A stretch of 64,000 nt of DNA from Candidatus Fervidifonticultor quartus. GTDB taxonomy: Bacteria > Sysuimicrobiota > Sysuimicrobiia > Sysuimicrobiales > Humicultoraceae. Under the pieces are notes generated by a model. It was not told where the DNA came from and did not search any database. It saw only the letters and a list, made by a program, of their open reading frames with translations. The stretch spans positions 42,233 to 106,232 of the forward strand of contig JAVKJV010000002.1 of NCBI GenBank assembly GCA_031458775.1. Reading direction: 5' to 3'. Each line of letters begins with the position of its first letter. Position 1 is the first letter of the stretch. Shown here in pieces: positions 1,122 to 55,965 of this stretch. A program made the translations under genes and the position numbers.

Positions 1122-4503
<3,382 letters not shown>

Positions 4504-4514
4504 GCGCGCGCGCC

Positions 4515-5042
4515 ATGAGTCTCGAACCGACGGTCGCATCGAGGGCGATCTACCGCGGTCGCGTGGCGACGCTCCGCGTGGATGACGTGCGTATGCCGAG
4601 CGGCCGCATCGAGCGCCGCGAGATCGTCGAGCACCCGGGCGCCGCGGCCGTCGTGCCGGTGACCGACGACCACGAGGTTGTGATGGTCCGGCAGTATCGC
4701 AAGGCGGTGGAGAGCGCACTCCTTGAGATTCCGGCCGGGACGCTCAACGCCGGCGAGACCGCGCTTGCCTGCGCGCACCGCGAACTGGCGGAAGAAACCG
4801 GGTTGGCCTGCGATGTCATGATGCCGCTGATCACCTTCGTGCCGTCGCCGGGGCTGCTGACCGAGGAGATCACGCTCTTCTTGGCCCGGGGCTTGCGGCC
4901 GGTACCCCGGATGGTACAGGCTGAGGAAGAGGGGCTGCAGGTCGTGCGCGTGCCGGTCGACCAGATTGCGCAGCTGATCAGCCGGGGGGACGTGCGGGAT
5001 TCGAAGACCATCATCGGGTTGATGCTCCTCTCGTGGCGGTGA
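4515..5042 (+). CDS. nudF: NUDIX hydrolase, ADP-ribose pyrophosphatase-like
   Basis: Nudix box GTLNAGETALACAHRELAEETG. N-terminal beta region YRGRVATLRVDDVRMPSG is typical of ADPRase. Start set at ATG 4515 (MSLEPTV...). Confidence 0.8.
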   Translation: MSLEPTVASRAIYRGRVATLRVDDVRMPSGRIERREIVEHPGAAAVVPVTDDHEVVMVRQYRKAVESALLEIPAGTLNAGETALACAHRELAEETGLACDVMMPLITFVPSPGLLTEEITLFLARGLRPVPRMVQAEEEGLQVVRVPVDQIAQLISRGDVRDSKTIIGLMLLSWR

Positions 5043-5060
5043 GCCGGTGATGCGGCGATC

Positions 5061-6059
5061 GTGACGTCGCCTGACCGCGGCCGGACGCGGGCCGAGTCCC
5101 GGGCGCTCAGCGCGGCCCTTGACGAGTTCCTCACCTACCTGACCGCCGAGCGCGGGCTTGCGCCCCGCACGGTCACCGCCTACCGTCACGACCTCGAGGA
5201 GTTCATCACCTTCGCGGCTCGCCGGGGCGCGCGCGGACCCGCCGACCTGCACCGGTCCGCGATCACCCTCTACCTGCTCGGCCTGCGGCGCCGGGGTTTG
5301 GCCGACACATCGGTCGCGCGGCGCCTGGCCGCGGTACGCGGATGGACCGGGTTCCTACTACGTACGGGTGCCATTGTCGACGATCCGGCACTGGACGTGA
5401 CGGCCGCGCATCGGCCGCGCCGTTTGCCCGACGTGCTCACGGTGGAAGAAGTGGAACGGCTGCTTGCGCAGCCGCGCGGCGACCGACCCCAGGTGCTGCG
5501 CGATCGGGCGATTCTCGAGCTGCTCTATGCCGCCGGCTTGCGCGTCAGTGAGCTGGTGGCCCTTGACGTGGGCGACGTGCACCTGGCGGTCGAGTACGTG
5601 CGGTGCGTCGGCAAGGGCTCCAAGGAGCGGATCGTGCCGATCGGGTCGGCTGCGGTGCGCGCGCTCCAGCGCTATCTCGCGCTCGCGCGGCCGGTGCTTG
5701 CAGGCGGGCGGCCGCAGCCGGCGCTGTTCCTCAACCGTCGGGGCGGCCGGCTGACCCGTCAGAGCGTCTGGACGCTGCTCCGGCAGTGCGCGCGGTCCGC
5801 GGGCCTGCGCAAGCCGATCCACCCGCACACGCTGCGGCACTCATTTGCCACGCACCTGCTGGACGGCGGCGCCGATCTGCGGGCGGTCCAGGAGATGCTG
5901 GGCCACGCGAGTATCGCCACGACGCAGGTCTACACGCATCTCACGCGGGCCCGGCTGCGCGAGGTGTATCGGCGAGCGCACCCGCGCGACCGCATGACCA
6001 TCCCCATCGGTCGAGGCGCGGATCGCTCTCGACCCGCGCCGTCGGCGCACCATGGCTAA
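5061..6059 (+). CDS. xerD: Site-specific tyrosine recombinase XerD (chromosome dimer resolution)
   Basis: Core-binding N-terminus [26 protein letters not shown]. Catalytic region [12 protein letters not shown]...[14 protein letters not shown]...[13 protein letters not shown] (R-H-R-Y). Bacillus-like xerD-deoB-punA context. About 28-aa C-terminal tail overlaps the deoB start. Confidence 0.88.
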
Positions 6060-7227
6060 GGCCAGTTGCGTCATCGTGCTGGTCCTCGACAGCCTTGGCG
6101 TCGGCGGCGCACCGGACGCCGCGGCCTATGGTGACGAGGGCAGCGACACGCTGGGGAATTGCGCGGTCGCATCTGGCGGCGTGCATCTGCCGGTGCTGGA
6201 GCGGTTGGGCCTGGGCGCGATCACCGAGGTGGCCGGGGTGCGACGGCGCGACGACCATGAGGCCGCGGTCGGCGTGATGCGTGAGCAGTCCGCAGGCAAG
6301 GACTCGACCACCGGGCACTGGGAGCTGGCCGGGCTGGTGGTCTCCAGGCCCTTTCCCACGTACCCCAGCGGATTCCCGGCCGAGGTGATTGACGCGTTCT
6401 CCAAGGCGATCGGCCGACCGGTGCTCGGCAACGTCGCCGCGTCGGGCACCGAGATCATCAAGGCGTTGGGTGAGGAGCACGTGCGGACCGGTGCGCCCAT
6501 TGTGTACACCTCGGCCGACAGCGTGTTTCAGATCGCCGCGCACGAGGAGATCGTGCCGCCGGACCAGCTCTACGCGTGGTGCCGTGAGGCGCGGACGATT
6601 CTCCAGGGCGAGCACGCGGTCAGCCGCGTGATCGCCCGGCCGTTCGTGGGGCTGCCGGGCGAGTTCCGGCGCACGGATCGCCGTCGGGACTTCTCACTGC
6701 CGCCGACCGGACCGACGGTGCTCGATGCGCTCGCCGCGGCGGGCCTGGCCGTGGTCGGGGTGGGCAAGATCGATGACCTGTTCGCCGGGCGCGGACTCAC
6801 CGAGGCGATCCACACACACGACGACATGGACGGCCTCACGCAGACCGTGGCCGCGATGCGACGGGTGGGGCACGGGCTGGTGTTTACGAACCTCGTCGAG
6901 CTCGACACGGCCTACGGGCACCGCAACGACGCGATCGGTTATGCTCGGCACCTCGAGGCCATTGACGCGCGCCTGGTGGAAGTCCTCGACGCGTGCGGAC
7001 CGGACGATGTGCTCATCATCACCGCCGATCACGGCAACGATCCGACGACGCCGAGTACCGACCACTCGCGTGAGCAGGTGCCGGTGCTGGCCTGGCGGCC
7101 CGGGCTGCCGCGCGGTCGCCATCTCGGTCTGCGGCGGTCGTTCGCCGACGTCGGCGCGACCGTCGCCGCGGCGCTCGGCGTGCCGTGGGCCGGGGCGGGC
7201 ACGGCGTTTTGGACGGCCCTGGAGTAG
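6052..7227 (+). CDS. deoB: Phosphopentomutase
   Basis: [16 protein letters not shown]-terminus and [11 protein letters not shown] metal-binding motif, 391 aa. Confidence 0.92.
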
Positions 7228-39532: not shown

Positions 39533-40932
39533 TGATCCTGCGCCGGGCACCGGGGCGGGCGTTGGTCGGCCTCGTGGCCGTGGCGGTCCTGGTCGCGGCG
39601 CAGCCGCATCCGTTGCGCCCCGACGTTCGCCCGCCCGGGTTTCGCGCCGATGTCCTCGTTACCGGCGGGAGTCCTTCCGGCGTGGCCGCCGCCGTGGCCG
39701 CGGCCCGCGAGGGCATGGTCGTGGTGTTGGTCGAGCCGCGGCCCTTCTTGGGCACGGTGTGGACCGGCGCCATGCTGAACATGATGGACCTCAACCGGTT
39801 GCGCGACGGCCGGGTGCTGAACCGCGGCATCTTCGAGGAGATGTATCGCCGACTCGGCGGCGTGACGTTCGATCCCCGGCGCGCCAGGCAGGCGCTGCTG
39901 GCGCTGGTTGAGGCCGAGCCCGGGCTGACCTTGTTGCTCACGACAGCCCTCAGGCGCCCGCTGGTGGAGTCCGGTCGGGTAATCGGCGCGGTCGTGCGGC
40001 TTCCCGAGGGATCGGAAGTCGCGGTCGTCGCCACCGTGACCGTAGATGCGACCGATGACGGCGATCTCGCCGCCGCCGCCGGCGTGCCGTTCACGATCGG
40101 TCGAGAGACGCTGGGGCCCGACCACCGCACGATGCCGGCCACCCTGATGTTCCGCGTCGGAGATCTGGACTGGCCGGCGCTCGTCGCGTATGCGAACGCG
40201 CACCGCCGCGGCCGGCAACCGAGCGGCGTGCTGAACGGGTATGTGTGGGGATTCCGCCGGCTGATGTACGACTACCGCCCCGAAGACCCCGGCCTATCCG
40301 CGCATGACTTGAACATCGGCCGCCTGCCCGACGGGACGGCCTTCATCAACGCGCTGCAAGTCCACGATCTGGATGCCACCGACCGCGCCGCGCGCCTGGA
40401 TGCGTACCTGCGCGCCAAACGCGAGGTGCCGAATCTGGTCGAGTACCTCAGGGTGAACGTCGCGGGCTTTGCCCGGGCGCAGTTGCTTGAGGTGGCGCCG
40501 GAGCTCTACATCCGGGAGTCGCGCCACCTCCGGGGGCTCTACACGCTCACCGCGCAGGACATCGTGTACGAGACCCGCTTCTGGGACCGTGTCGGCGCGG
40601 CGTCGTATCCCATTGATTTGCACCAGTACGTGCCGGGCGAGCAATACCCTTACCGGCCGGTCCGCCACCCGTACACGATCCCGCTGCGGGCGCTCATCCC
40701 GATCGGTACCGACGGGCTGTTCGTCGCCAGCCGTGCGTTCTCGGCGACCTTCGAGGCCGCAGGGTCGGCGCGGGTGGTTCCCACGACCGTCGTGATGGGG
40801 CAGGCGACGGGCGTCGCCGCAGCCGTCTGTGTGGATGCCCGCGTGACACCACACGAACTGGCCGAGCGCCGGGATCTCGTACGAGAGGTGCAGAGGCGTC
40901 TGGTCCGGTCAGGGGCGGTTATCGACTTCTGA
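39529..40932 (+). CDS. FAD-dependent oxidoreductase (FAD_oxidored/GIDA-like family) with N-terminal signal or anchor
   Basis: Hydrophobic N-terminus ALVGLVAVAVLVAA, then dinucleotide-binding VLVTGGSPSGVAAAVAAAREG...VVLVE. Start overlaps the paaD stop (ATGA). Confidence 0.7.
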   Translation: MMILRRAPGRALVGLVAVAVLVAAQPHPLRPDVRPPGFRADVLVTGGSPSGVAAAVAAAREGMVVVLVEPRPFLGTVWTGAMLNMMDLNRLRDGRVLNRGIFEEMYRRLGGVTFDPRRARQALLALVEAEPGLTLLLTTALRRPLVESGRVIGAVVRLPEGSEVAVVATVTVDATDDGDLAAAAGVPFTIGRETLGPDHRTMPATLMFRVGDLDWPALVAYANAHRRGRQPSGVLNGYVWGFRRLMYDYRPEDPGLSAHDLNIGRLPDGTAFINALQVHDLDATDRAARLDAYLRAKREVPNLVEYLRVNVAGFARAQLLEVAPELYIRESRHLRGLYTLTAQDIVYETRFWDRVGAASYPIDLHQYVPGEQYPYRPVRHPYTIPLRALIPIGTDGLFVASRAFSATFEAAGSARVVPTTVVMGQATGVAAAVCVDARVTPHELAERRDLVREVQRRLVRSGAVIDF

Positions 40933-40935
40933 TCG

Positions 40936-41760
40936 GTGGAGGCACCCGTGCCGCTGCCGGCGACGTTGAGCCTGGTCTACCACGCGCGCGAGTCGTTCCC
41001 GCGCGAAGTGCCGCTGGAGGCCGTCTACCGCACCCTCGACGTCGAATCGCCCGGCGGCCGGCCTGCCGTCATCGTGAACATGGTACAGACCCTGGACGGC
41101 GTCGTGGCCATCGGCGGCAAGGCCTGGGCCATCGGGTCGGAGGTGGACCACTATCTGTTTCGGACGCTGCGCGGCTGGGCCGATGTCGTGCTGAGCGGCG
41201 CCGGCACGCTGCGCGAGAACGACGTGATCGCCGCGACCCACGCGTCCCTGCAGGCCGAGCGCCGCGCCGCGGGCCGGCCGGCACACCCCACGGCCGTGGT
41301 CGTGACGCGTCGGGCGGAGTTCTCCGACGATGTCCTGCGCAAGCGCTTTTTCACCCATCGCGAGGCCACGCCCGTGGTCGTGACCACCGAACTGGCCCGT
41401 GACGCAGATCGCCGTCGCGTCACCACCGCCGGCGCAGAGCTTGTCGTCGTTCCCGCGACGCCTGAGGGGGAGATCGACCTCCGCGCGGTGCTCGACCGGT
41501 TCTCGTCCCGCGGGGTACGGCGTGTCCTGGCGGAGGGCGGGCCGTCGACCAACCGCCGTCTGGTCGAAGCCGGCCTCGTGGACGAACTCTTCGTCACGCT
41601 GACTGCGCGTGTGGTCGGGGAGGCCGGGGCACAGGCGGTCCTGACCGGGGTGCTCGGCGGTGCGCCCGCGGATCTCCGGCTCATCAGCGAGCTGCACTGC
41701 CGGGCACCGTACCTGCGAGAGTGGTACCTGCGCTTTGCCGTCGCAGGAGCGCGCGGGTGA
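40936..41760 (+). CDS. RibD C-terminal domain / dihydrofolate-reductase-like reductase family protein
   Basis: VNMVQTLDGVVAIGGKAWAIGSEVDHYLFRTLRGWADVVLSGAGTLRE ... RRVLAEGGPSTNRRLVEAGLVDELFVTLTARVVG follows the RibD_C pattern. Confidence 0.72.
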   Translation: MEAPVPLPATLSLVYHARESFPREVPLEAVYRTLDVESPGGRPAVIVNMVQTLDGVVAIGGKAWAIGSEVDHYLFRTLRGWADVVLSGAGTLRENDVIAATHASLQAERRAAGRPAHPTAVVVTRRAEFSDDVLRKRFFTHREATPVVVTTELARDADRRRVTTAGAELVVVPATPEGEIDLRAVLDRFSSRGVRRVLAEGGPSTNRRLVEAGLVDELFVTLTARVVGEAGAQAVLTGVLGGAPADLRLISELHCRAPYLREWYLRFAVAGARG

Positions 41761-41814
41761 GGGTGCGAAATCTCCGGCAACGCCGTATCCGACCGATCCA
41801 GGAGCCGTGACGCC

Positions 41815-43209
41815 ATGCCGCGTGAACCCATGCCCGATCTCGTCGTGCTCCTTCCCGGCATCTGCGGCAGCGCGCTGCGCAAGGACGGTCGCGATCTGTG
41901 GGCGATCTCCGGGGACGCGGCGAGCCGCCTGCTCTTCAGCCTGGGCCGCAGCCTCGGCGACCTGAGGCTCACCGACGACCCGGCGGACGTCGACGATCTC
42001 GGCGACGGCATCACTGCCGACCGGCTGATCGCCGACCTGCACCTCATCCCCTATCTGTGGAAGATCGACGGGTACACGAAGGTGGCCGACACACTCAAAG
42101 CGACCTTCGAGGTCACTCCCGGCCGCAACTATTTCGAGTTTCCCTACGACTGGCGTCGTGACAACCGCGTGGCGGCCCGCCGCCTCCAACGGGAGAGCCG
42201 ACGATGGCTCGCCGACTGGCGACAGTCGTCCGGGAACGCGGACGCCAAGCTGATCCTCATCGGCCACTCGATGGGCGGCGTCGTGTCCCGATACTTCCTC
42301 GAATGTCTGGACGGCTGGCGCGAATGCCGGGCGCTCGTGACCTTCGGCACACCGTACCTGGGGGCCCTCAACGCCCTCGACTTCCTCGCGAACGGGATGC
42401 GCAAAGGCCCGGCCGGCGTCGTTGACCTTTCGGGTCTCATCCGTTCGCTGACGTCCGTCTACCAGTTGCTGCCGGTCTACGACTGCTATGATCCTGGCGA
42501 CGGGACGCTGGTGACGGTCGGCAAGACCACGGGCGTCCCCAACGTGGATGCCGGTCGCGCCGCGGCCGCCTACGCGTTCCACCGCGAGATCGCCGACGCG
42601 GTCGCGCGGCACCGGCAGGACGACGAGTACGTCCGCCAGGGGTACAAGATCTTCCCCATCGTGGGGACGCACCAGCCGACGCAGCAGTCGGCGCGCCGGA
42701 CGGCAACCGGCGTCGAGATGGCGCAGGCCCTGGCCGGCCGCGACGACGGCGGTGACGGCACGGTGCCGCGGGTCTCGGCCACGCCGGTCGAACTGCAACA
42801 GTTGGGCCGTGAGATGTACGCGGCGACGCGCCACGCGTCCCTCCAGAACGCCGACGCGGTGCTGGCGCAACTGCACGGTGTCATCACGGGACTGTCCCTG
42901 TCGGTCCCGAAACCGTTCCCGGTGCGGCTCGACGTGGTCCGGCTCGGCCTCGACCTCGACGACGCCTACTGGACCGACGAGCCGGTCGAGGCGCGCGTGC
43001 GCGGCCGCGCCGGCGAGGATGTGGTCGTGACCGTCAGCAGCGCAGCCACCGGCGCCCAGGTGGCCGCGCGGCCGATTGCCCTTCAGGATGCCCCGTGGAC
43101 TCCTGCGCCATTCAGTCCCCTGCCCGCCGGAACATATCGCATCACGGTCTCCGGGCATGAACGTGTCGAGCCCGTGGCCGACATCTTTGCGGTCTTCGAA
43201 CATCGCTAG
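41815..43209 (+). CDS. LCAT/PGAP1-like alpha/beta-hydrolase (lipase/acyltransferase) with C-terminal beta-rich domain
   Basis: Nucleophile elbow LILIGHSMGGVVSRYF (Ser152), GGDGTVP (Asp314), TRHASLQN (His340). FEFPYDWRRDN is the LCAT-family YDWR block. About 100-aa C-terminal beta-strand-like region (RITVSG..., VVVTVSS...). AGGAG RBS 10 nt before ATG 41815. Confidence 0.75.
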   Translation: MPREPMPDLVVLLPGICGSALRKDGRDLWAISGDAASRLLFSLGRSLGDLRLTDDPADVDDLGDGITADRLIADLHLIPYLWKIDGYTKVADTLKATFEVTPGRNYFEFPYDWRRDNRVAARRLQRESRRWLADWRQSSGNADAKLILIGHSMGGVVSRYFLECLDGWRECRALVTFGTPYLGALNALDFLANGMRKGPAGVVDLSGLIRSLTSVYQLLPVYDCYDPGDGTLVTVGKTTGVPNVDAGRAAAAYAFHREIADAVARHRQDDEYVRQGYKIFPIVGTHQPTQQSARRTATGVEMAQALAGRDDGGDGTVPRVSATPVELQQLGREMYAATRHASLQNADAVLAQLHGVITGLSLSVPKPFPVRLDVVRLGLDLDDAYWTDEPVEARVRGRAGEDVVVTVSSAATGAQVAARPIALQDAPWTPAPFSPLPAGTYRITVSGHERVEPVADIFAVFEHR

Positions 43210-43259
43210 CCGCGCGACCCCGCCGATGCGGGGGATTCCGAGATCTGGAGGCGGGCCAC

Positions 43260-44057
43260 ATGGCATGTCGGGAGAGTTCTATCGATTTTCTGCGGGGCTT
43301 GGGATATACGCCCATCCAGTTGCCGCGTGAACGCATTCACCCGCTCGACCTGGTGGGGAAACTGGCGGGCGGCGGCCGCGCGAAGCAACTGGGTTCACTC
43401 ACCAAGCTCGTCGTCGGCGCGGTGCCGGCACCCGAGATTGCCCGTGACGAGCAGGTCGGACAGGTGAGCGGCAAGCGGACCGACAAGCTCGATATCGGGA
43501 TCGGGCTCAATCTGCTTTCGAAGTTCTTCTCGGCGCTTGGGGTCTTCTCGGCCTCGATCAGCGCCGCGTTTGCGCGGGCCAAGCAGGTCGAGTTTCAATA
43601 CGAGAACGTGACCTCCGATTCGGTGGACATCGTCGACCTGCGCGGCTATCTGGGGAAGCGGCCGTCCCTGGACCCGAACAACCCGGTGGTGGACGATTAC
43701 TTCATCGGCGACGGCCAGGTGGTGGTGATCACGCGAACGCTCAAGTCCACCGGGTTCGGCGTGTTGGCGTCCGACGAGAGGGGCAACAAGGTGGACATCG
43801 ACGTCGACGTTCTCAAAGAGGATCTGGCCAAGGCCGGAGTGGATGCCGCCAGGGGCTCAGAGATGAAGGTATCGTTCAAGGGCACCAAGCCGCTCGTCTT
43901 TGCCTTTCAGGGACTGATGCTGCGCATCGACACCGGCGGATTACGGGTGAGCGACGATGTGCCCGCGGAGCTGGGCATCTTCGCGTCCAGGCCGGCTGCT
44001 GCCGGTGAGGCCGCCCCGGTGGTGCTCACGCGGAACGGGCTGCTGCGGCTCGACTGA
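43260..44057 (+). CDS. Bacterial gasdermin (bGSDM)-like pore-forming protein
   Basis: 265 aa with no TM helix or signal peptide. Starts MAC (Cys3). IDFLRGLGYTPIQLPRERIHPLDLV, KRTDKLDIGIGLNLLSKFFSALG, VEFQYENVTSDSVDIVDLRGYL, VVVITRTLKSTGFGVLASDERGNKVDIDVDV and KVSFKGTKPLVFAFQGLMLRID follow the bGSDM block pattern as I recall it. Short about 30-aa C-terminal tail. GGAGG RBS 8 nt upstream. Protease gene immediately downstream. Confidence 0.72.
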   Translation: MACRESSIDFLRGLGYTPIQLPRERIHPLDLVGKLAGGGRAKQLGSLTKLVVGAVPAPEIARDEQVGQVSGKRTDKLDIGIGLNLLSKFFSALGVFSASISAAFARAKQVEFQYENVTSDSVDIVDLRGYLGKRPSLDPNNPVVDDYFIGDGQVVVITRTLKSTGFGVLASDERGNKVDIDVDVLKEDLAKAGVDAARGSEMKVSFKGTKPLVFAFQGLMLRIDTGGLRVSDDVPAELGIFASRPAAAGEAAPVVLTRNGLLRLD

Positions 44058-44093
44058 TCAGGCGCCGGCGCACACAGAGAGGGAGACCGGGCG

Positions 44094-45491
44094 ATGGAGT
44101 TCATATCCACGAACGGCATCGACCTGCGCACCGGGCGGCCGGTGTTTCACCGGGTGCCGTTCCAGGAGTTCCTGCAGGTCTTCCACAACCGGCTGCCGGC
44201 GCCGCGCGAAGACGAGGAGCGGCGCCGTGCCACGACGAGCGCGCTGAGCACCACGCGCAGTATCTTCGCGGCCACGACGAACCTCAACGATCCCGTCGCG
44301 GCCGGCTACGGCGTGGTCTGTGCGCCGGGCCGCGTGCCCCTGCTCGACGGGGCCCTGGCGCCGCTGCTGGCGTGGCGCCAGGTGAAACCCGAGCACCGGC
44401 TTGTCCTTGACATCGCCCAAGTGGGGATCGGCGGGTTATCGGACTGGATGGACGAACACATCACGTTTCGCGACGGGCCGTACTACTGGTTGCTTGTGGG
44501 CGGTCCGGCCGAGCTGCCCTTTGACCTTCAGTGGATGCTGGATGCGGGCAAGGCCGCGGGCCGTATTGAGTTCGACGATGAGGCTGAGTACGCGGCGTAC
44601 GCGGAGCGTGTGATCCGGGCCGAGCAGGTGCTCGCCGCGTCACACGGGGCACCGCCGGTGTTCTTCTGGTCGACCCTCCACGACGACGTCACCAGGCTGA
44701 GCAACTGGTACATGTGCACGCCGCTGGTGAAGCGGCTGGAGAGCCACGGCGTCAACGTGACCTATCGCGAGAAGGCCGACGCTACGGTGGACGCGTTCTG
44801 GAGTGCGGCCAGGGCGTGGGGGACGCGCGGCGGGCTCGTCTACACGGCCAGTCACGGTGGCATGCTGCCGAACGACGACGCCGAGCAGCCTGCGCGTCAG
44901 GGTGCGCTCGTGGCCATGGACGGCACGATCGAGGGTCAGCAGGTCGATCGGGAGCGGTCGGCGTTCCCGCACTCGGTCGTGTTCAACTTCGCTTGCTACT
45001 CGGGAGGGACGCCCTCGCACAGCGACTTCAATCACTGGGTTCCCGAGTACCACCTGGGCCGGTACATTCCGCAGACGGCATTCGTCTCGCGGCTGCACCG
45101 GCGGTGGGTCGCGCACCCGGCCGGCCCGCTGGCCGCGGTGGGCCACGTCGAGCCGGCGTGGCTCCACTCGTTTGCGAATCCGGACAATCCGGACGACGTC
45201 ATGTTCGACGCCGCGCTGGACACCGAGTGGGGGGAGCGTATCCAACCGTTCCGTACCTTCACCGACCGGCTGGTAAGGGGGTATACCGTCGGCTACGCGA
45301 TGGAACTGTTCGGGTTTCTCTATGATCAACTGGGGAATGACATCGCCCGGCGCATCAACCGGTACCTGCGCGACAACCCGGGCGGCGCGGTGAACGAACA
45401 GGAGTTGCGCAAGATGGCGACGCGCTGGATCAGCCGCAACGACTATCAGAACTACGTGGTCTTCGGCGATCCGGCGGTGCGCATCGCGTGA
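44094..45491 (+). CDS. Clan CD cysteine protease (caspase/gingipain C25-like), probable gasdermin-activating protease
   Basis: His-Cys dyad in caspase-like spacing: LVYTASHGG (His254, CAC 44853-44855) and VVFNFACYSGG (Cys301, TGC 44994-44996). C25-like blocks PYYWLLVGGPAELPF and C-terminal NYVVFGDPAVRI. AGGGAG RBS before ATG 44094. No NACHT, TPR, WD40 or LRR-like repeats visible. Confidence 0.7.
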   Translation: MEFISTNGIDLRTGRPVFHRVPFQEFLQVFHNRLPAPREDEERRRATTSALSTTRSIFAATTNLNDPVAAGYGVVCAPGRVPLLDGALAPLLAWRQVKPEHRLVLDIAQVGIGGLSDWMDEHITFRDGPYYWLLVGGPAELPFDLQWMLDAGKAAGRIEFDDEAEYAAYAERVIRAEQVLAASHGAPPVFFWSTLHDDVTRLSNWYMCTPLVKRLESHGVNVTYREKADATVDAFWSAARAWGTRGGLVYTASHGGMLPNDDAEQPARQGALVAMDGTIEGQQVDRERSAFPHSVVFNFACYSGGTPSHSDFNHWVPEYHLGRYIPQTAFVSRLHRRWVAHPAGPLAAVGHVEPAWLHSFANPDNPDDVMFDAALDTEWGERIQPFRTFTDRLVRGYTVGYAMELFGFLYDQLGNDIARRINRYLRDNPGGAVNEQELRKMATRWISRNDYQNYVVFGDPAVRIA

Positions 45492-52446: not shown

Positions 52447-55400
52447 ATGAGCGGGCGTGCTGAAGCCCGCTGGCGCCTCCGCGCTCGGCAGAGTCCAGAC
52501 GCGCGCGCGTTGGCCGCAGCCCTGGATGTCCACCCCATTACCGCGCAGGTGCTCATGAACCGCGGCATTCGGACCCCCGGGGCCGGCCGTGCGTTTCTCG
52601 ATCCGTCGCCGGGCGACCTGCAACCGGCGCGTGCGGTGGCGGGCATGGATGCGGCGATCGTGCGCGTCGCCCGCGCGATCCGCGAGCGCACACCGGTCGC
52701 GGTCTATGGCGACTACGACGCTGACGGCGTCACCGCCACGGCGATCCTCGTGCGCGCGATCCGCGCAGCCGGCGGGCCGGTCAGCTTCTACGTGCCCGAT
52801 CGGCAGGCGGAGGGCTACGGTCTGCACGCCGGCGTGGTGCGGCGCCTGGCGGCAGACGCCGGCGTCATCCTTGCGGTCGACTGTGGGATCACCGCCGCGG
52901 CCGACACCGCCCGCGAGGCCGGAGTCGATCTGATCATCCTCGATCATCACGTGCCGATCGGGCCGCTCCCGCACGCCGCGGTCATCGTCAACCCCAAGGT
53001 GAGCCGCGAACCGACCGAGTACTGCGCCGCGGGGCTTGCCTACCAGTTGACGCGCGGGCTCCATGAGGTCCTGAACCACGACCTTGACGATGCCGACCTG
53101 CTGGGGCTGGCCGCGATCGGCACGGTGGCCGACGCGGTGCCGTTGCGCGACGCCAACCGGATCATCGTCGCGCAAGGGCTGGAGGCGCTTGCGGCCACGG
53201 GTCTGCCCGGCGTCAAGGCACTGCTCGAGGTCGCCGCGCTGCGCGCGCCCCTCTCGGCGCGTGATGTGTCGCACGGAGTGGCCCCGCGCCTCAACGCGGC
53301 CGGCCGACTCGCGCATGCTTCCGCAGCCGTGCGGCTACTGCTGAGCGACGACCCGGACGAGAGCCGCGCGATCGCCGAGGCACTCGACCGCCTGAACGGC
53401 GAGCGGCGTGCCCTGTGCGATCGGGTGCTGGCCGAGGCGCTCGAGGCCATCGAGTCCGCGGCCATGGGCGGCGATCCGGCGATCGTGGTCGCGCGCGAAG
53501 GGTGGCATCCCGGCGTCATTGGGATCGTGGCGTCGCAGATCGTGGAGCGGTACTACCGGCCTGCCGTCGTGATCGCCATTCGGGAAGGGGTGGGAAAGGG
53601 GTCCGGCCGCAGCATTCCAGCGCTGCACCTCGTCGAGACCCTGGCGCGCGCCTCGTCCACGCTCGACGCGTACGGCGGGCACGCCATGGCCGCCGGCCTG
53701 ACGGTTGCCGCAGATGCGGTGTCGCGGTTTCGTGAGGCGTTCGTCCGCGAGGCCGGGGCCGCATTGTCGGCCGACGATCTGGTCCCGGTCGTCGAGGTGG
53801 ACGTCGAGGTGGGTCTCGAGGCGCTGACGCCGGCGCTCGCCGACGAGCTGGCCCGGATCGCGCCGTGCGGGTCCGGCAATCCGGAACCGGTGCTGCTGAC
53901 CCGAGGCGTCCGCGCGGTGGGCACGCGCACCGTCGGGAATGGGGCCCACCTGCGGCTCATCGTGAGCGACGGCGTCCGGAGCGCCGACGCCATCGGATTC
54001 CGGCTCGGCGACCACGCCGAGTTGCTCGCGTTCACGCAGGCGCGACTCGACCTGGCCTACGCACTCGAGCGCGATCGCTGGCGTCAGGAGCCCGCTGTGC
54101 AACTCGTCGTCGAACGGCTCTGGACCCCTGAGGTTGACCTGGAGACGGTCACGGCGGACACCGCAGACCTCGTGGCCCGTCTCTTCGACCGCGCCGACGA
54201 CTATCTCGATGTCGACCACGCCCGGCCGGAAGACGTCCCGGCCTTCCACACGAAGGTCGTCGGCGTGACGTTCGAGGGACGGCAGGACCTGGTGCGGAGC
54301 ATCAAAGCCGGTCAGCGTCTGCGGCTGGTCCGTGATCCCTCCAACCCACGCGACCCGTACGCGATCAAGGTGGTGACGCCGGACGGCGGCCAGTTGGGGT
54401 TTCTCCGGGCGGCGCTGGCGGCCCGCCTGGCTCCGACCATCGACGCAGGCGCCCGCTACGAGGCGACGGCGACGGCGCTAACCGGTGGCGGTGATCGAGC
54501 CTGGGGGTTGAACATCTACCTCGAGCGGCAGGCGCCGTGGTCGGGCGACATCGAGGCTGGCACGGGCCAGGTCAGGCCGCCGCAGGGCGAAGCGTTCCTG
54601 GACTGGGTCGCGGCGCGACTCGCGCGCGGCCGGGGGTTCTCCGACACCCAGCGAGGCGTGCTCGACGCGATGCTCAGCGGACGCCGCGCCGTGGTTCGCC
54701 ACGGGCCCGGGCGCGGCATCCTGCTGGGCACCGCCGCCGCGGCCGCGGCGCTGCTGGCCAGCGGCGCGGGGCCCGCGCTGGTCGTGCTGCCGCGCGCCGT
54801 CGAGGTCGACGCGTGGGCCGGCGCGCTTGGGCCGTGGTTGCGGGCCGCCGGGCTGAGGCTCGTCGCTGTGCACGGCTTGCTTGCCGGCCGGGCCCGGTCG
54901 CGGGCTGACGACGCGTTGGATCGTCGGGACGTTGACGTGCTCGTGGCCTCCGCGGCGTGGGTCCTCGCGCGCGCACCCCGCGCCTGCGCGGTCATCGCCG
55001 TGACCGACGACATCTGCCCCGAGGAGGACCTGCTCGCGCTCCGCGACGTGTACGGTGCCGCCGTCCGGCTGGTGTGGGGGCCGGCGTCGCCATCCCGGCT
55101 CCTGATGGTCGTGGGAGGTGATCGGGCGCGGAGTGCCGGCGTGACCGAGATTGTGTCCGGCTCGCCGCCCCGCACGAATCTGCGCGTCGTGGACCGCCGC
55201 GGCCGCCGGGATCAGGAAGGCGTGGTACCCTCGGGATCGTCTCGGCCGGACAAGACATTGGTTGTGACGTGCGACGCCGGATCCAGCGTCGCGGAAGCCC
55301 GACGCCTGCGTGCGCGCGCGGCCGAAGCCGCCGGTCACGTCGCCTACTATCACGATCACCTGCCGGCGGCCCTGCGGCGGGTGCTCGAGGATCTGTACGC

Positions 55401-55965
55401 GGCAGGTCGCATCCAGACCCTGGTCGTTGGATCGCCGATGGTGCAGCCCGCCGTGCCGCTGGACGTCAATCGCGTCGTGGCCCTGGGCCTGCCCCCGACG
55501 CGGCTGCTGGCGGCTGAGACTCTGGCCGCGGGCGGCGCGGGCGGGCAGGCGACGGTCATCGAGCTGCTCTACGCGCCCGATGCGCCGGCGGTCTGGGCAG
55601 CGACGCGGGCGGCCCGGCAACCGTCGCGTGACGATCTCGTGCGCGGCTACCAGCATCTCCGGATGCTTGGACCGGACGCTGCCTGGACCAGGTCCGAGGT
55701 TCTCGCCCACGCCGCGAGGTCCGGGTACCCGGTGGATCTCCTGGCTACGGCGCTTGAGATCTTCCTCGAGGCCGGCGTCGTCTCCGCGGAAGGTGCCGAG
55801 GGGGACGACGTCCGCTACACACTCACCGATCCAACGGTGCGGGTGGACCTGCAGAAGTCCTTGCGCTATCGGGAGGCCGTGCGCGAGCGTGCGGCGTTCG
55901 AAGACCTGGCGCGCTGGGCGACCGGCCCGGCGTCCGCGATTCTCACGGAGCTGGCGCAGCCCTAG
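52447..55965 (+). CDS. recJ: Single-stranded-DNA-specific exonuclease RecJ fused to a HIRAN domain and a degenerate RecQ-like helicase/winged-helix module
   Basis: RecJ core: VYGDYDADGVTA (DHH I/II), LIILDHHVP (DHH III), GGHAMAAGL (DHHA1), OB region GNGAHLRLIVSDG. HIRAN from residue 600: FHTKVVGVTFEGRQ...LVRDPSNPRDPYAIKV...QLGFL. C-terminal about 450 aa resembles the RecQ helicase lobes but lacks the Walker A Lys and DEAH. Confidence 0.85.
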   Translation: MSGRAEARWRLRARQSPDARALAAALDVHPITAQVLMNRGIRTPGAGRAFLDPSPGDLQPARAVAGMDAAIVRVARAIRERTPVAVYGDYDADGVTATAILVRAIRAAGGPVSFYVPDRQAEGYGLHAGVVRRLAADAGVILAVDCGITAAADTAREAGVDLIILDHHVPIGPLPHAAVIVNPKVSREPTEYCAAGLAYQLTRGLHEVLNHDLDDADLLGLAAIGTVADAVPLRDANRIIVAQGLEALAATGLPGVKALLEVAALRAPLSARDVSHGVAPRLNAAGRLAHASAAVRLLLSDDPDESRAIAEALDRLNGERRALCDRVLAEALEAIESAAMGGDPAIVVAREGWHPGVIGIVASQIVERYYRPAVVIAIREGVGKGSGRSIPALHLVETLARASSTLDAYGGHAMAAGLTVAADAVSRFREAFVREAGAALSADDLVPVVEVDVEVGLEALTPALADELARIAPCGSGNPEPVLLTRGVRAVGTRTVGNGAHLRLIVSDGVRSADAIGFRLGDHAELLAFTQARLDLAYALERDRWRQEPAVQLVVERLWTPEVDLETVTADTADLVARLFDRADDYLDVDHARPEDVPAFHTKVVGVTFEGRQDLVRSIKAGQRLRLVRDPSNPRDPYAIKVVTPDGGQLGFLRAALAARLAPTIDAGARYEATATALTGGGDRAWGLNIYLERQAPWSGDIEAGTGQVRPPQGEAFLDWVAARLARGRGFSDTQRGVLDAMLSGRRAVVRHGPGRGILLGTAAAAAALLASGAGPALVVLPRAVEVDAWAGALGPWLRAAGLRLVAVHGLLAGRARSRADDALDRRDVDVLVASAAWVLARAPRACAVIAVTDDICPEEDLLALRDVYGAAVRLVWGPASPSRLLMVVGGDRARSAGVTEIVSGSPPRTNLRVVDRRGRRDQEGVVPSGSSRPDKTLVVTCDAGSSVAEARRLRARAAEAAGHVAYYHDHLPAALRRVLEDLYAAGRIQTLVVGSPMVQPAVPLDVNRVVALGLPPTRLLAAETLAAGGAGGQATVIELLYAPDAPAVWAATRAARQPSRDDLVRGYQHLRMLGPDAAWTRSEVLAHAARSGYPVDLLATALEIFLEAGVVSAEGAEGDDVRYTLTDPTVRVDLQKSLRYREAVRERAAFEDLARWATGPASAILTELAQP

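Follow-up and report, generated by a model that had tools for sequence, protein, structure and literature searches.

A bacterial gasdermin gene and an adjacent clan CD protease gene, a likely cell-death module, in Candidatus Fervidifonticultor quartus

We analyzed a stretch of 64,000 nucleotides (nt) from the bacterium Candidatus Fervidifonticultor quartus (assembly GCA_031458775.1, contig JAVKJV010000002.1, positions 42,233 to 106,232 of the forward strand), referred to below as the window. The element under study is a bacterial gasdermin (bGSDM) gene together with the protease gene that directly follows it; a gene for an LCAT-like hydrolase precedes both. An initial annotation, made from the letters of the DNA, had described an open reading frame (ORF) of 265 amino acids (aa) with bGSDM hallmarks and had assumed a protease gene next to it. 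The position and length of the ORF were exactly as described, and the protease gene is indeed present. According to the ORF list, the ATG of the gasdermin gene is the first possible start after the upstream stop codon, and the translation opens with MACRESS. The three genes lie on the same strand: the hydrolase gene stops 50 nt 5' of the gasdermin gene, and the protease gene begins 36 nt past the gasdermin stop codon. No terminator-like site was found between the hydrolase, gasdermin and protease genes. The coordinates of all features are collected in Table 1.

Table 1. Genes and sequence features of the gasdermin locus. Positions are those of the window, except in the last row.
Feature	Position	Strand	Basis or remark
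Bacterial gasdermin (bGSDM), 265 aa	43260..44057	+	PADLOC, NCBIfam, PDB sequence, AlphaFold/Foldseek
GGAGG ribosome-binding site, 8 nt 5' of gasdermin ATG	43247..43251	+	Sequence reading
Cys3 codon (TGT), predicted S-palmitoylation site	43266..43268	+	Aligns with Vitiosangium Cys4
Leu238-Gly239, putative scissile bond (P1-P1')	43971..43976	+	Conservation, Vitiosangium boundary, Runella specificity
Predicted C-terminal autoinhibitory peptide, G239-D265	43974..44054	+	Variable linker 243-252, then PVVLxRxGLLxLD
Clan CD cysteine protease, 465 aa, gingipain/C25-like (PADLOC 'chat' class), dyad H254/C301	44094..45491	+	PADLOC, conservation, AlphaFold/Foldseek
GGGAG ribosome-binding site, 8 nt 5' of protease ATG	44081..44085	+	Sequence reading
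LCAT/PGAP1-like α/β-hydrolase, 464 aa, triad S152/D314/H340; candidate accessory gene or second effector	41815..43209	+	Pfam, conservation
L101 genes (positions in L101)	2179-3270, 3277-4713, 5001-6407	-, -, +	Combined locus

The identity of the gasdermin was assessed by the profile and structure searches that the initial annotation had proposed, and all of them returned gasdermins. The PADLOC profile for bGSDM (PDLC02986) matched residues 3-262 of the protein with an E-value of 1.5e-65, covering model positions 2-255 of 257. The NCBIfam equivalog NF051890 'prok_gasdermin' scored 187.2 bits against a curated cutoff of 100, with all 203 model positions covered. When the protein was compared with PDB sequences by phmmer, only gasdermins were found, including that of Vitiosangium (7N51, 6.1e-39, query residues 3-264 aligned to 4-263), its active form (8SL0) and that of Bradyrhizobium (7N50, 7e-08). 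An AlphaFold2 model was built from an alignment of 22 sequences, namely the window protein and 21 homologues with 56-93% identity. The model is β-rich, as the initial annotation had expected, with a mean predicted local distance difference test score (pLDDT) of 67 and values of about 70-86 in the core. Its top match in a Foldseek search of the PDB was again 7N51 (E-value 5e-19, template-modelling (TM) score 0.73), and all 13 matches with an E-value of 1e-3 or lower were gasdermins (Vitiosangium, Bradyrhizobium, Runella, Trichoplax, and human and mouse GSDMD), among them the three bacterial proteins that had been named for comparison. The model and its Foldseek matches agree with the fold of the gasdermin N-terminal domain, a twisted antiparallel β-sheet with peripheral helices.

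A local copy of Pfam gave no match for the gasdermin. It was blank for the protease as well; both proteins were assigned to their families from PADLOC, NCBIfam, PDB and fold evidence instead. Homologues of the gasdermin carry the precomputed annotation PF26164 (Bact_GSDM), and NCBI already names one 81%-identical protein from a metagenome-assembled genome (MAG) 'gasdermin'. Four independent lines agree that the ORF encodes a genuine bacterial gasdermin. The main point of the initial annotation is correct but not new, as NCBIfam and PADLOC already recognize the protein family. Because such standard resources already make the call, its interest as a headline is moderate to low.

Cys3 had been put forward as a bGSDM hallmark, and the comparison with relatives agrees. 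It matches Cys4 of the Vitiosangium protein, and 20 of the 21 homologues of the clade likewise begin with MAC. In crystals of the Bradyrhizobium (C3) and Vitiosangium (C4) gasdermins, this cysteine carries a palmitoyl thioester that lies within a hydrophobic tunnel (Johnson et al., preprint). Acylation of Cys3 in the window protein is predicted from this correspondence. In the Vitiosangium protein, L260 at the C-terminal end caps the palmitoyl pocket, and alanine substitutions of the pocket residues L211 and F213 partly disrupt function. The counterparts here are L261, which is nearly invariant in the clade, and L212 and F214, which are both invariant. The sequence blocks that had been quoted as fitting the family pattern are all present and fall on invariant or nearly invariant columns of the 22-sequence alignment. 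In addition, a family-wide profile search of 1.84 billion representatives (E<=1e-3) returned 1,042 family clusters. The best 149 matches after the clade's own representative included 128 of normal length (230-300 aa), and 100 of these 128 have a cysteine at positions 2-5, indicating that Cys3 is a true hallmark of the family and not a coincidence. A further 13 of the 149 are longer (365-954 aa) and have an N-terminal gasdermin domain (P0269, P0304, P0328, P0330 and P0351 among them); they look like fusions of a gasdermin with a large C-terminal region.

The initial annotation had also assigned an inhibitory role to a short C-terminal tail. The last 27-30 residues or so would indeed correspond to the 29-aa inhibitory C-terminal domain (CTD) of the Vitiosangium gasdermin. 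The alignment with 7N51 reaches residue 264, and the length of the tail fits the short (about 20-30 aa) inhibitory class, as opposed to the eukaryotic CTD of about 200 aa; its predicted docking over the palmitoyl pocket involves a poorly modelled region. Within the predicted peptide, P253, V254, G260, L262 and L264 are invariant in the 22-sequence alignment, and a variable stretch of about 10 residues precedes the PVVLxRxGLLxLD motif.

Several observations point to the bond at which this peptide would be released. G239 is invariant in the same alignment, and position 238 is occupied only by L, F or M. L238/G239 maps to residue 237 of the Vitiosangium protein, which is the end of the toxic ΔCTD construct from which 29 aa were removed. 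The protease of Runella strictly needs a Leu-Gly dipeptide. Finally, the P2'-P4' residues Ile-Phe-Ala (IFA) are kept in P0001-P0012, the group that is nearest to the window protein and includes every confirmed protease-linked member; in the sister clade, where no sampled locus has an adjacent protease, these residues have diverged. Considering the invariant glycine, the ΔCTD boundary, the Leu-Gly requirement and the conservation of IFA, cleavage would most likely take place between L238 and G239. The variable loop formed by residues 243-252 is the alternative location.

The neighboring protease is the predicted activator of the gasdermin. It matched the PADLOC gasdermin-system protease model 'chat' (PDLC02988) over its full length with an E-value of 3.6e-34. 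When it was aligned with 62 homologues, H254 (in ASHGG) and C301 (in FACYSGG) were invariant. Its AlphaFold2 model reached a pLDDT of 91.8 and a predicted TM score of 0.92. In the Foldseek search, the best matches were the gingipains Kgp (4RBM, 4e-08) and RgpB (4IEF), followed by fungal and human separase and the Craspase TPR-CHAT protein, with a probability of 1.00. The α/β fold, in which the catalytic His and then the Cys follow successive β-strands, is that of clan CD. Pfam (at a limit of 0.01) and NCBIfam gave no match for this protein, and phmmer found no credible PDB sequence. The Pfam CHAT family (PF12770) did not match even at E<=10; membership of CHAT in the strict Pfam sense was rejected, and 'chat' is used here only in the sense of PADLOC. 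The Pfam C25 family (PF01364) stayed below its cutoff (13.7 bits versus 23, E-value 0.036) and covered the C-terminal part only. Many homologues of the protease (28-36% identity) do carry PF01364, and PGAP names the plasmid homologues 'C25 family cysteine peptidase'. Based on the PADLOC match, the gingipain-like fold and the failure of Pfam CHAT, we named the enzyme a clan CD gingipain/C25-like protease of the PADLOC 'chat' class.

We compared the pair with systems that have been characterized experimentally. The closest solved relative of the gasdermin is that of Vitiosangium sp. GDMCC 1.1324 (7N51, inactive; 8SL0/9A84, active oligomer and pore). Both proteins fall into the same length class and have the N-terminal cysteine at position 3 or 4, equivalent pocket and capping residues, and a CTD (predicted in the window protein) of about 27-29 residues, whereas their identity over the Foldseek alignment is 31%. 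The Vitiosangium locus lies amid defence genes (restriction-modification, SIR2), in contrast to the housekeeping surroundings of the window locus. It should be noted that the native cleavage site of the Vitiosangium protein is itself only predicted, and that an engineered thrombin site was used. In Runella zeae, an adjacent caspase-like cysteine protease removes a short C-terminal peptide, and by analogy the same may happen here. The Runella cut follows a hydrophobic P1 residue and precedes a glycine (Leu247-Gly), similar to L238-G239 with its invariant Gly in the window protein. The Runella protease, however, is large, fused to Roc-COR and of the CHAT type (catalytic H796/C804), whereas the window protease is a stand-alone protein of 465 aa with no sensor module. 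The Runella gasdermin is distant as well (7N52 versus the window model: TM score about 0.57, 16-19% identity). In the preprint of Wein et al., we found no usable classification of gasdermin operon types.

Gingipains are virulence proteases that are secreted; they have prodomains and Ig-like or adhesin domains, and their specificity is for Arg/Lys. As the best structural matches of the window protease, Kgp and RgpB (C25, clan CD) have the His/Cys dyad in common with it and align over about 430-470 columns, which suggests that the modelled protein has the same two-subdomain catalytic architecture. The identity in these structural alignments is only 10-12%, and the similarity to Pfam C25 is sub-threshold. 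The window protease shows none of the additional gingipain domains, and its predicted cleavage is after Leu/Phe/Met instead.

The arrangement of the two genes is conserved. A protease gene lies directly 3' of the gasdermin gene in all six related loci for which downstream sequence is available (L001, L002, L007, L008, L009 and L019). The gasdermins of these loci are 83% (L001, L002 and L008), 81% (L009), 75% (L007) and 83% (L019, a partial gene) identical to that of the window. A scan of species-representative genomes yielded five gasdermin loci only, all of one lineage, in MAGs labelled Armatimonadota or Ca. Fervidifonticultor/Ca. Geohabitans. NCBI taxonomy places Ca. Fervidifonticultor in Candidatus Sysuimicrobiota.

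We consider it very likely that the two genes form a gasdermin cell-death module, composed of a bGSDM and the adjacent protease that activates it. The analysis shows to which families the two proteins belong, how they are folded, that their hallmark residues are conserved and that the genes stay adjacent. Toxicity, pore formation, palmitoylation and the precise position of the cut are drawn by analogy from the Runella, Vitiosangium and Bradyrhizobium proteins. The bGSDM would be produced as a soluble, inactive precursor. Cys3 is probably self-palmitoylated, and its acyl chain would lie inside a hydrophobic pocket, with the C-terminal peptide and its L261 closing this pocket off. Once activated, the cytoplasmic clan CD protease (H254/C301) would cut the loop before this peptide, most likely at L238|G239. 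Autoinhibition would thereby be lifted, and residues 1 to about 238 could insert into the inner membrane and oligomerize to large pores. Such pores would kill the cell, as in abortive-infection defence.

A number of results weigh against this interpretation. The gasdermin model is only moderate: residues 233-265 have pLDDT values below 50, and the docking of the C-terminal peptide is not resolved. Neither Pfam nor the structural model revealed a sensor, repeat or NTPase domain in the protease; no sensor gene is evident in the window either. Housekeeping genes flank the locus on both sides (paaA/C/D-like genes, an FAD oxidoreductase, RibD_C, GNAT, MFS, DUF72, TerC, SecD/F, RecJ and RelA/SpoT), and no further convincing defence system turned up when 48 window proteins were scanned with PADLOC. 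Gasdermins of a sister clade (56-58% identity; L003-L006, L011 and L012) have no protease within 6-10 kb, and these proteins retain both the MAC N-terminus and the C-terminal motif. Moreover, we surveyed 80 metagenomic loci built around homologues of the protease and sought gasdermins in them by tblastn and with a hidden Markov model of the clade; the 78 loci with distant homologues (27-36% identity) had no detectable gasdermin.

The initial annotation had stated that its reading would be refuted if the family were found without protease neighbors in other genomes. This is the case in the sister clade, whereas the close relatives are all paired. We do not regard the sister clade as decisive, because in the founding set of bGSDMs 43 of 50 adjoin a protease gene and 7 of 50 are likewise without one. 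The three different genomic contexts occupied by the sister-clade gasdermin loci include that of L011, where a 959-aa cyclase-NB-ARC-TPR STAND protein is encoded two genes 3' of the gasdermin. As for the surroundings of the window locus, a defence-island context is unsupported; the other PADLOC matches in the window reflect generic helicase or cysteine-desulfurase similarity. With housekeeping flanks and no other defence system, the anti-phage role is assumed and not supported by context. In other respects the locus is typical of the known system; what is unusual is the host phylum, the housekeeping location and the lipase-like gene upstream.

This upstream gene encodes an α/β-hydrolase with Pfam matches to LCAT (6e-14), PGAP1 and DUF676. 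The triad Ser152-Asp314-His340, with the motifs GHSMGG and GDGTVP, is invariant in 18 homologues. Antisense to the hydrolase gene, the minus strand has an ORF of 785 aa (40909-43266) that extends 7 nt into the start of the gasdermin gene. This ORF was rejected as a shadow ORF of the kind typical of a genome with about 70% guanine and cytosine (GC): it has no family matches, and a gene map based on the GC content of third codon positions (GC3) favors the plus-strand hydrolase frame. The hydrolase accompanies the gasdermin-protease pair in the window, L001, L002, L008 and L009. It is absent from L007, indicating that it is dispensable for the pair.

The hydrolase family is large and widespread. 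More than 4,500 matches were obtained, with 55-58% identity across phyla and a constant length of about 465 aa, and the family occurs in Rokubacteria, Thermoanaerobaculia and Actinomycetota as well as in the window lineage (homologues P0092-P0211). The automatic label given to these proteins by JGI is often 'pimeloyl-ACP methyl ester carboxylesterase'. Every distant member examined adjoins a clan CD protease or a STAND NTPase. The gene order is C14-LCAT-C14 in L017 and LCAT-CHAT/C25-CHAT in L018 (Rokubacteria), while a CHAT-CHASE2 protein is encoded close to the LCAT-like gene in L099/L100 (Thermoanaerobaculia). In L101, the hydrolase is found with a C25-like protease that is 35% identical to that of the window, an MBL-fold protein (HxHxDH) and a TPR-CHAT protein, so that at this locus two effector classes reported as protease-activated adjoin two proteases. 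On plasmids, the neighbors are a CHAT protein in Bradyrhizobium, a NACHT protein with WD40 upstream in Rhizobium, and a NACHT-annotated protein with HEAT repeats in Sphaerospermopsis. In total, an α/β-hydrolase with an intact triad beside a protease or STAND protein was found in the window, L017, L018, L099, L101, L102, L104 and L105.

A dual-effector module of three genes would account for this arrangement. In such a module, the protease would license both the gasdermin pore and the LCAT-like lipase/acyltransferase, the latter as a zymogen or co-effector; alternatively, hydrolase and protease would be the ancestral pair to which the gasdermin was added. We regard this as possible, although doubtful. 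The tight spacing on one strand with no terminator-like site in between argues for it, and so does the recurrence of the hydrolase, with its invariant triad, in the window and four related loci. In other phyla, each of the four distant members of the family that were sampled (L017, L018, L099 and L101; 55-58% identity) has clan CD proteases within one to three genes, and the plasmid homologues adjoin CHAT or NACHT/WD40/HEAT proteins. That α/β-hydrolase zymogens are activated by neighboring caspase-like proteases has been demonstrated experimentally (Evans et al. 2025, PMC12642450), and in one contig (P0038) a single deletion spans the region from mid-hydrolase to mid-protease.

The closest described parallel is the LcHydrolase-LcCaspase pair of Lysobacter capsici (Evans et al. 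2025, PMC12642450), in which a lipase-like α/β-hydrolase stands beside a caspase-like protease, as it does here. Elsewhere, the LcHydrolase family accompanies WD40/STAND sensors, and so do LCAT-like homologues of the window protein. However, the sizes do not match: set side by side by description, LcHydrolase is a protein of about 33 kDa that is cut at two Arg|Gly sites, and the window hydrolase is an LCAT/PGAP1-like protein of 51 kDa. A dual-effector module is also difficult to reconcile with L007, which has gasdermin and protease without hydrolase, and with the finding that none of 78 loci with distant protease homologues has an LCAT-like gene. Moreover, the loci that share the hydrolase are also syntenic, so that its co-occurrence may reflect vertical inheritance. 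A role of the hydrolase as second effector of the same protease is therefore tentative at best, and we think it rather unlikely that 41815-45491 as a whole is a three-gene module in which one sensor-less protease controls two membrane-attacking effectors at a fixed core site. Our literature search found no report that pairs a protease-activated hydrolase with a gasdermin. If the dual-effector module were real, it would be the first case of a gasdermin system that has an enzyme as its second effector, found in an uncultivated, thermophile-associated phylum (Sysuimicrobiota/'Armatimonadota'). It would provide a bacterial analogue of a single caspase that drives multiple death effectors, and a lipase-like second effector would extend the logic of a protease licensing a latent effector to multi-effector modules.

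The contig P0038 mentioned above is a 7-kb Logan contig that encodes an in-frame chimera of 301 aa, in which LCAT-like residues of about 128-245 are fused to protease residues of about 290-465. The junction lies at a short 'SAF/YAF' microhomology, and P0038 corresponds to window positions of about 42200-44960. The deletion removes the 3' half of the hydrolase gene, the entire gasdermin gene and the catalytic His of the protease. Either the toxic pair was lost naturally in P0038, or the chimera arose from faulty assembly.

A different question is whether the gasdermin-protease pair serves in anti-phage defence at all. The pair could be real and yet act as a chromosomally fixed module for regulated lysis or for stress-related or developmental cell death. 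This would be consistent with its location: in relatives with 63-92% identical gasdermins, the gene occupies the same chromosomal site, 3' of FAD oxidoreductase/RibD_C or of paa genes. No tRNAs, mobile-element marks or meaningful flanking repeats were found around the locus, and our searches for homologues of the gasdermin gave none in phages and a single, distant one on a plasmid (a megaplasmid). Along the same lines, no other defence system was detected in the 64 kb, and the protease is without the pathogen-sensor domains typical of defence-island versions. On the other hand, gasdermin operons tested to date cause cell death, and at least the Lysobacter type defends against phage (PMC10312443). 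The lack of a defence island, as negative evidence, weighs little, and no developmental regulator is indicated by the sequence. We judge a non-defence function to be unlikely, albeit a serious contender, and retain the gasdermin cell-death module as the preferred interpretation.

The fixed location also bears on the origin of the gasdermin gene. The initial annotation had reported that its GC content is a few percent below that of core genes. The number is correct, as the gene has 63.8% GC compared to a window mean of 69.4%; among 50 window genes (mean 69.3%, standard deviation 2.4), it is the second lowest (z = -2.35). As a sign of foreign origin, however, the value is not evidence. The deficit extends over all three codon positions and is largest at the first two (GC1 -0.058, GC2 -0.073, GC3 -0.036), which indicates that it mostly reflects amino-acid composition. 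The gasdermin genes of close relatives show a deficit of 2-3 points within their own genomes, and the deficit vanishes in the sister clade. The low GC content looks like a mild trait that the close relatives have in common, and not like a sign of recent transfer. Recent horizontal acquisition was rejected on these grounds, together with the synteny, the lack of tRNAs, repeats and phage matches, and the single distant plasmid match.

It is improbable that the adjacent protease has another substrate and that the gasdermin is activated by an unlinked factor. Such a factor must exist for the sister clade, whose gasdermins have the same termini and no neighboring protease, and most homologues of the window protease are linked not to gasdermins but to CHAT proteins. 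Against this stand the strict adjacency of gasdermin and protease with short spacers in every close relative for which sequence is available, and the full-length match to the PADLOC gasdermin-system protease model. In addition, the residues just past the putative scissile bond are kept in the group to which every protease-linked member belongs and have diverged in the sister clade. We rate as highly improbable a role of the LCAT-like enzyme in palmitoylating Cys3 of the gasdermin, since bGSDMs are palmitoylated when expressed alone in E. coli, for which autocatalysis has been proposed (Johnson et al., preprint), and since members of the hydrolase family are common beside proteases or STAND proteins where the gasdermin profile matched no tested neighbor; the L007 gasdermin, too, has Cys3 without a hydrolase, although LCAT enzymes do move acyl chains from phospholipids via a Ser-acyl intermediate and the gene lies directly upstream with its triad intact.

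With a 265-aa gasdermin and a 465-aa stand-alone protease that is not fused to a sensor, the pair is a clean and compact example of its kind. Its notable features are the sensor-less gingipain-like protease, the core-chromosome site in an uncultivated phylum, the protease-less sister clade and a possible lipase-like effector. The high-GC source lineage includes MAGs from hot springs, and such proteins may be stable material for biochemistry.

The survey of protease homologues led us to reject the distant ones as gasdermin partners, given the 78 of 80 loci without gasdermin. At the loci of distant homologues (L013-L016 and L021-L098), the usual neighbors are CHAT or TPR-CHAT proteins (42 loci), which suggests multi-protease cascades. 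Two kinds of further neighbors recur at the distant protease loci. One is a conserved protein of about 270 aa with a hydrophobic C-terminal segment, which is encoded in 14 loci, usually immediately downstream, and the other comprises small proteins of about 113-125 aa; Pfam gave no match for either.

Finally, two observations concern the wider surroundings of the pair. The RecJ-like protein of the window (1,172 aa, 52447-55965, plus strand) combines DHH, DHHA1 and RecJ_OB domains with a HIRAN domain and has about 500 further C-terminal residues without a Pfam match. In relatives, the block 3' of the pair (L007, 4573-8088; L001, 11091-12795) encodes a 211-aa protein, a DUF8156 protein and a family B DNA polymerase (PolB); in L007, this polymerase weakly matches the Pfam families of intein-splicing and LAGLIDADG domains. 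In the window, DUF72, TerC and SecDF genes stand in place of this block, after the GNAT and MFS genes.

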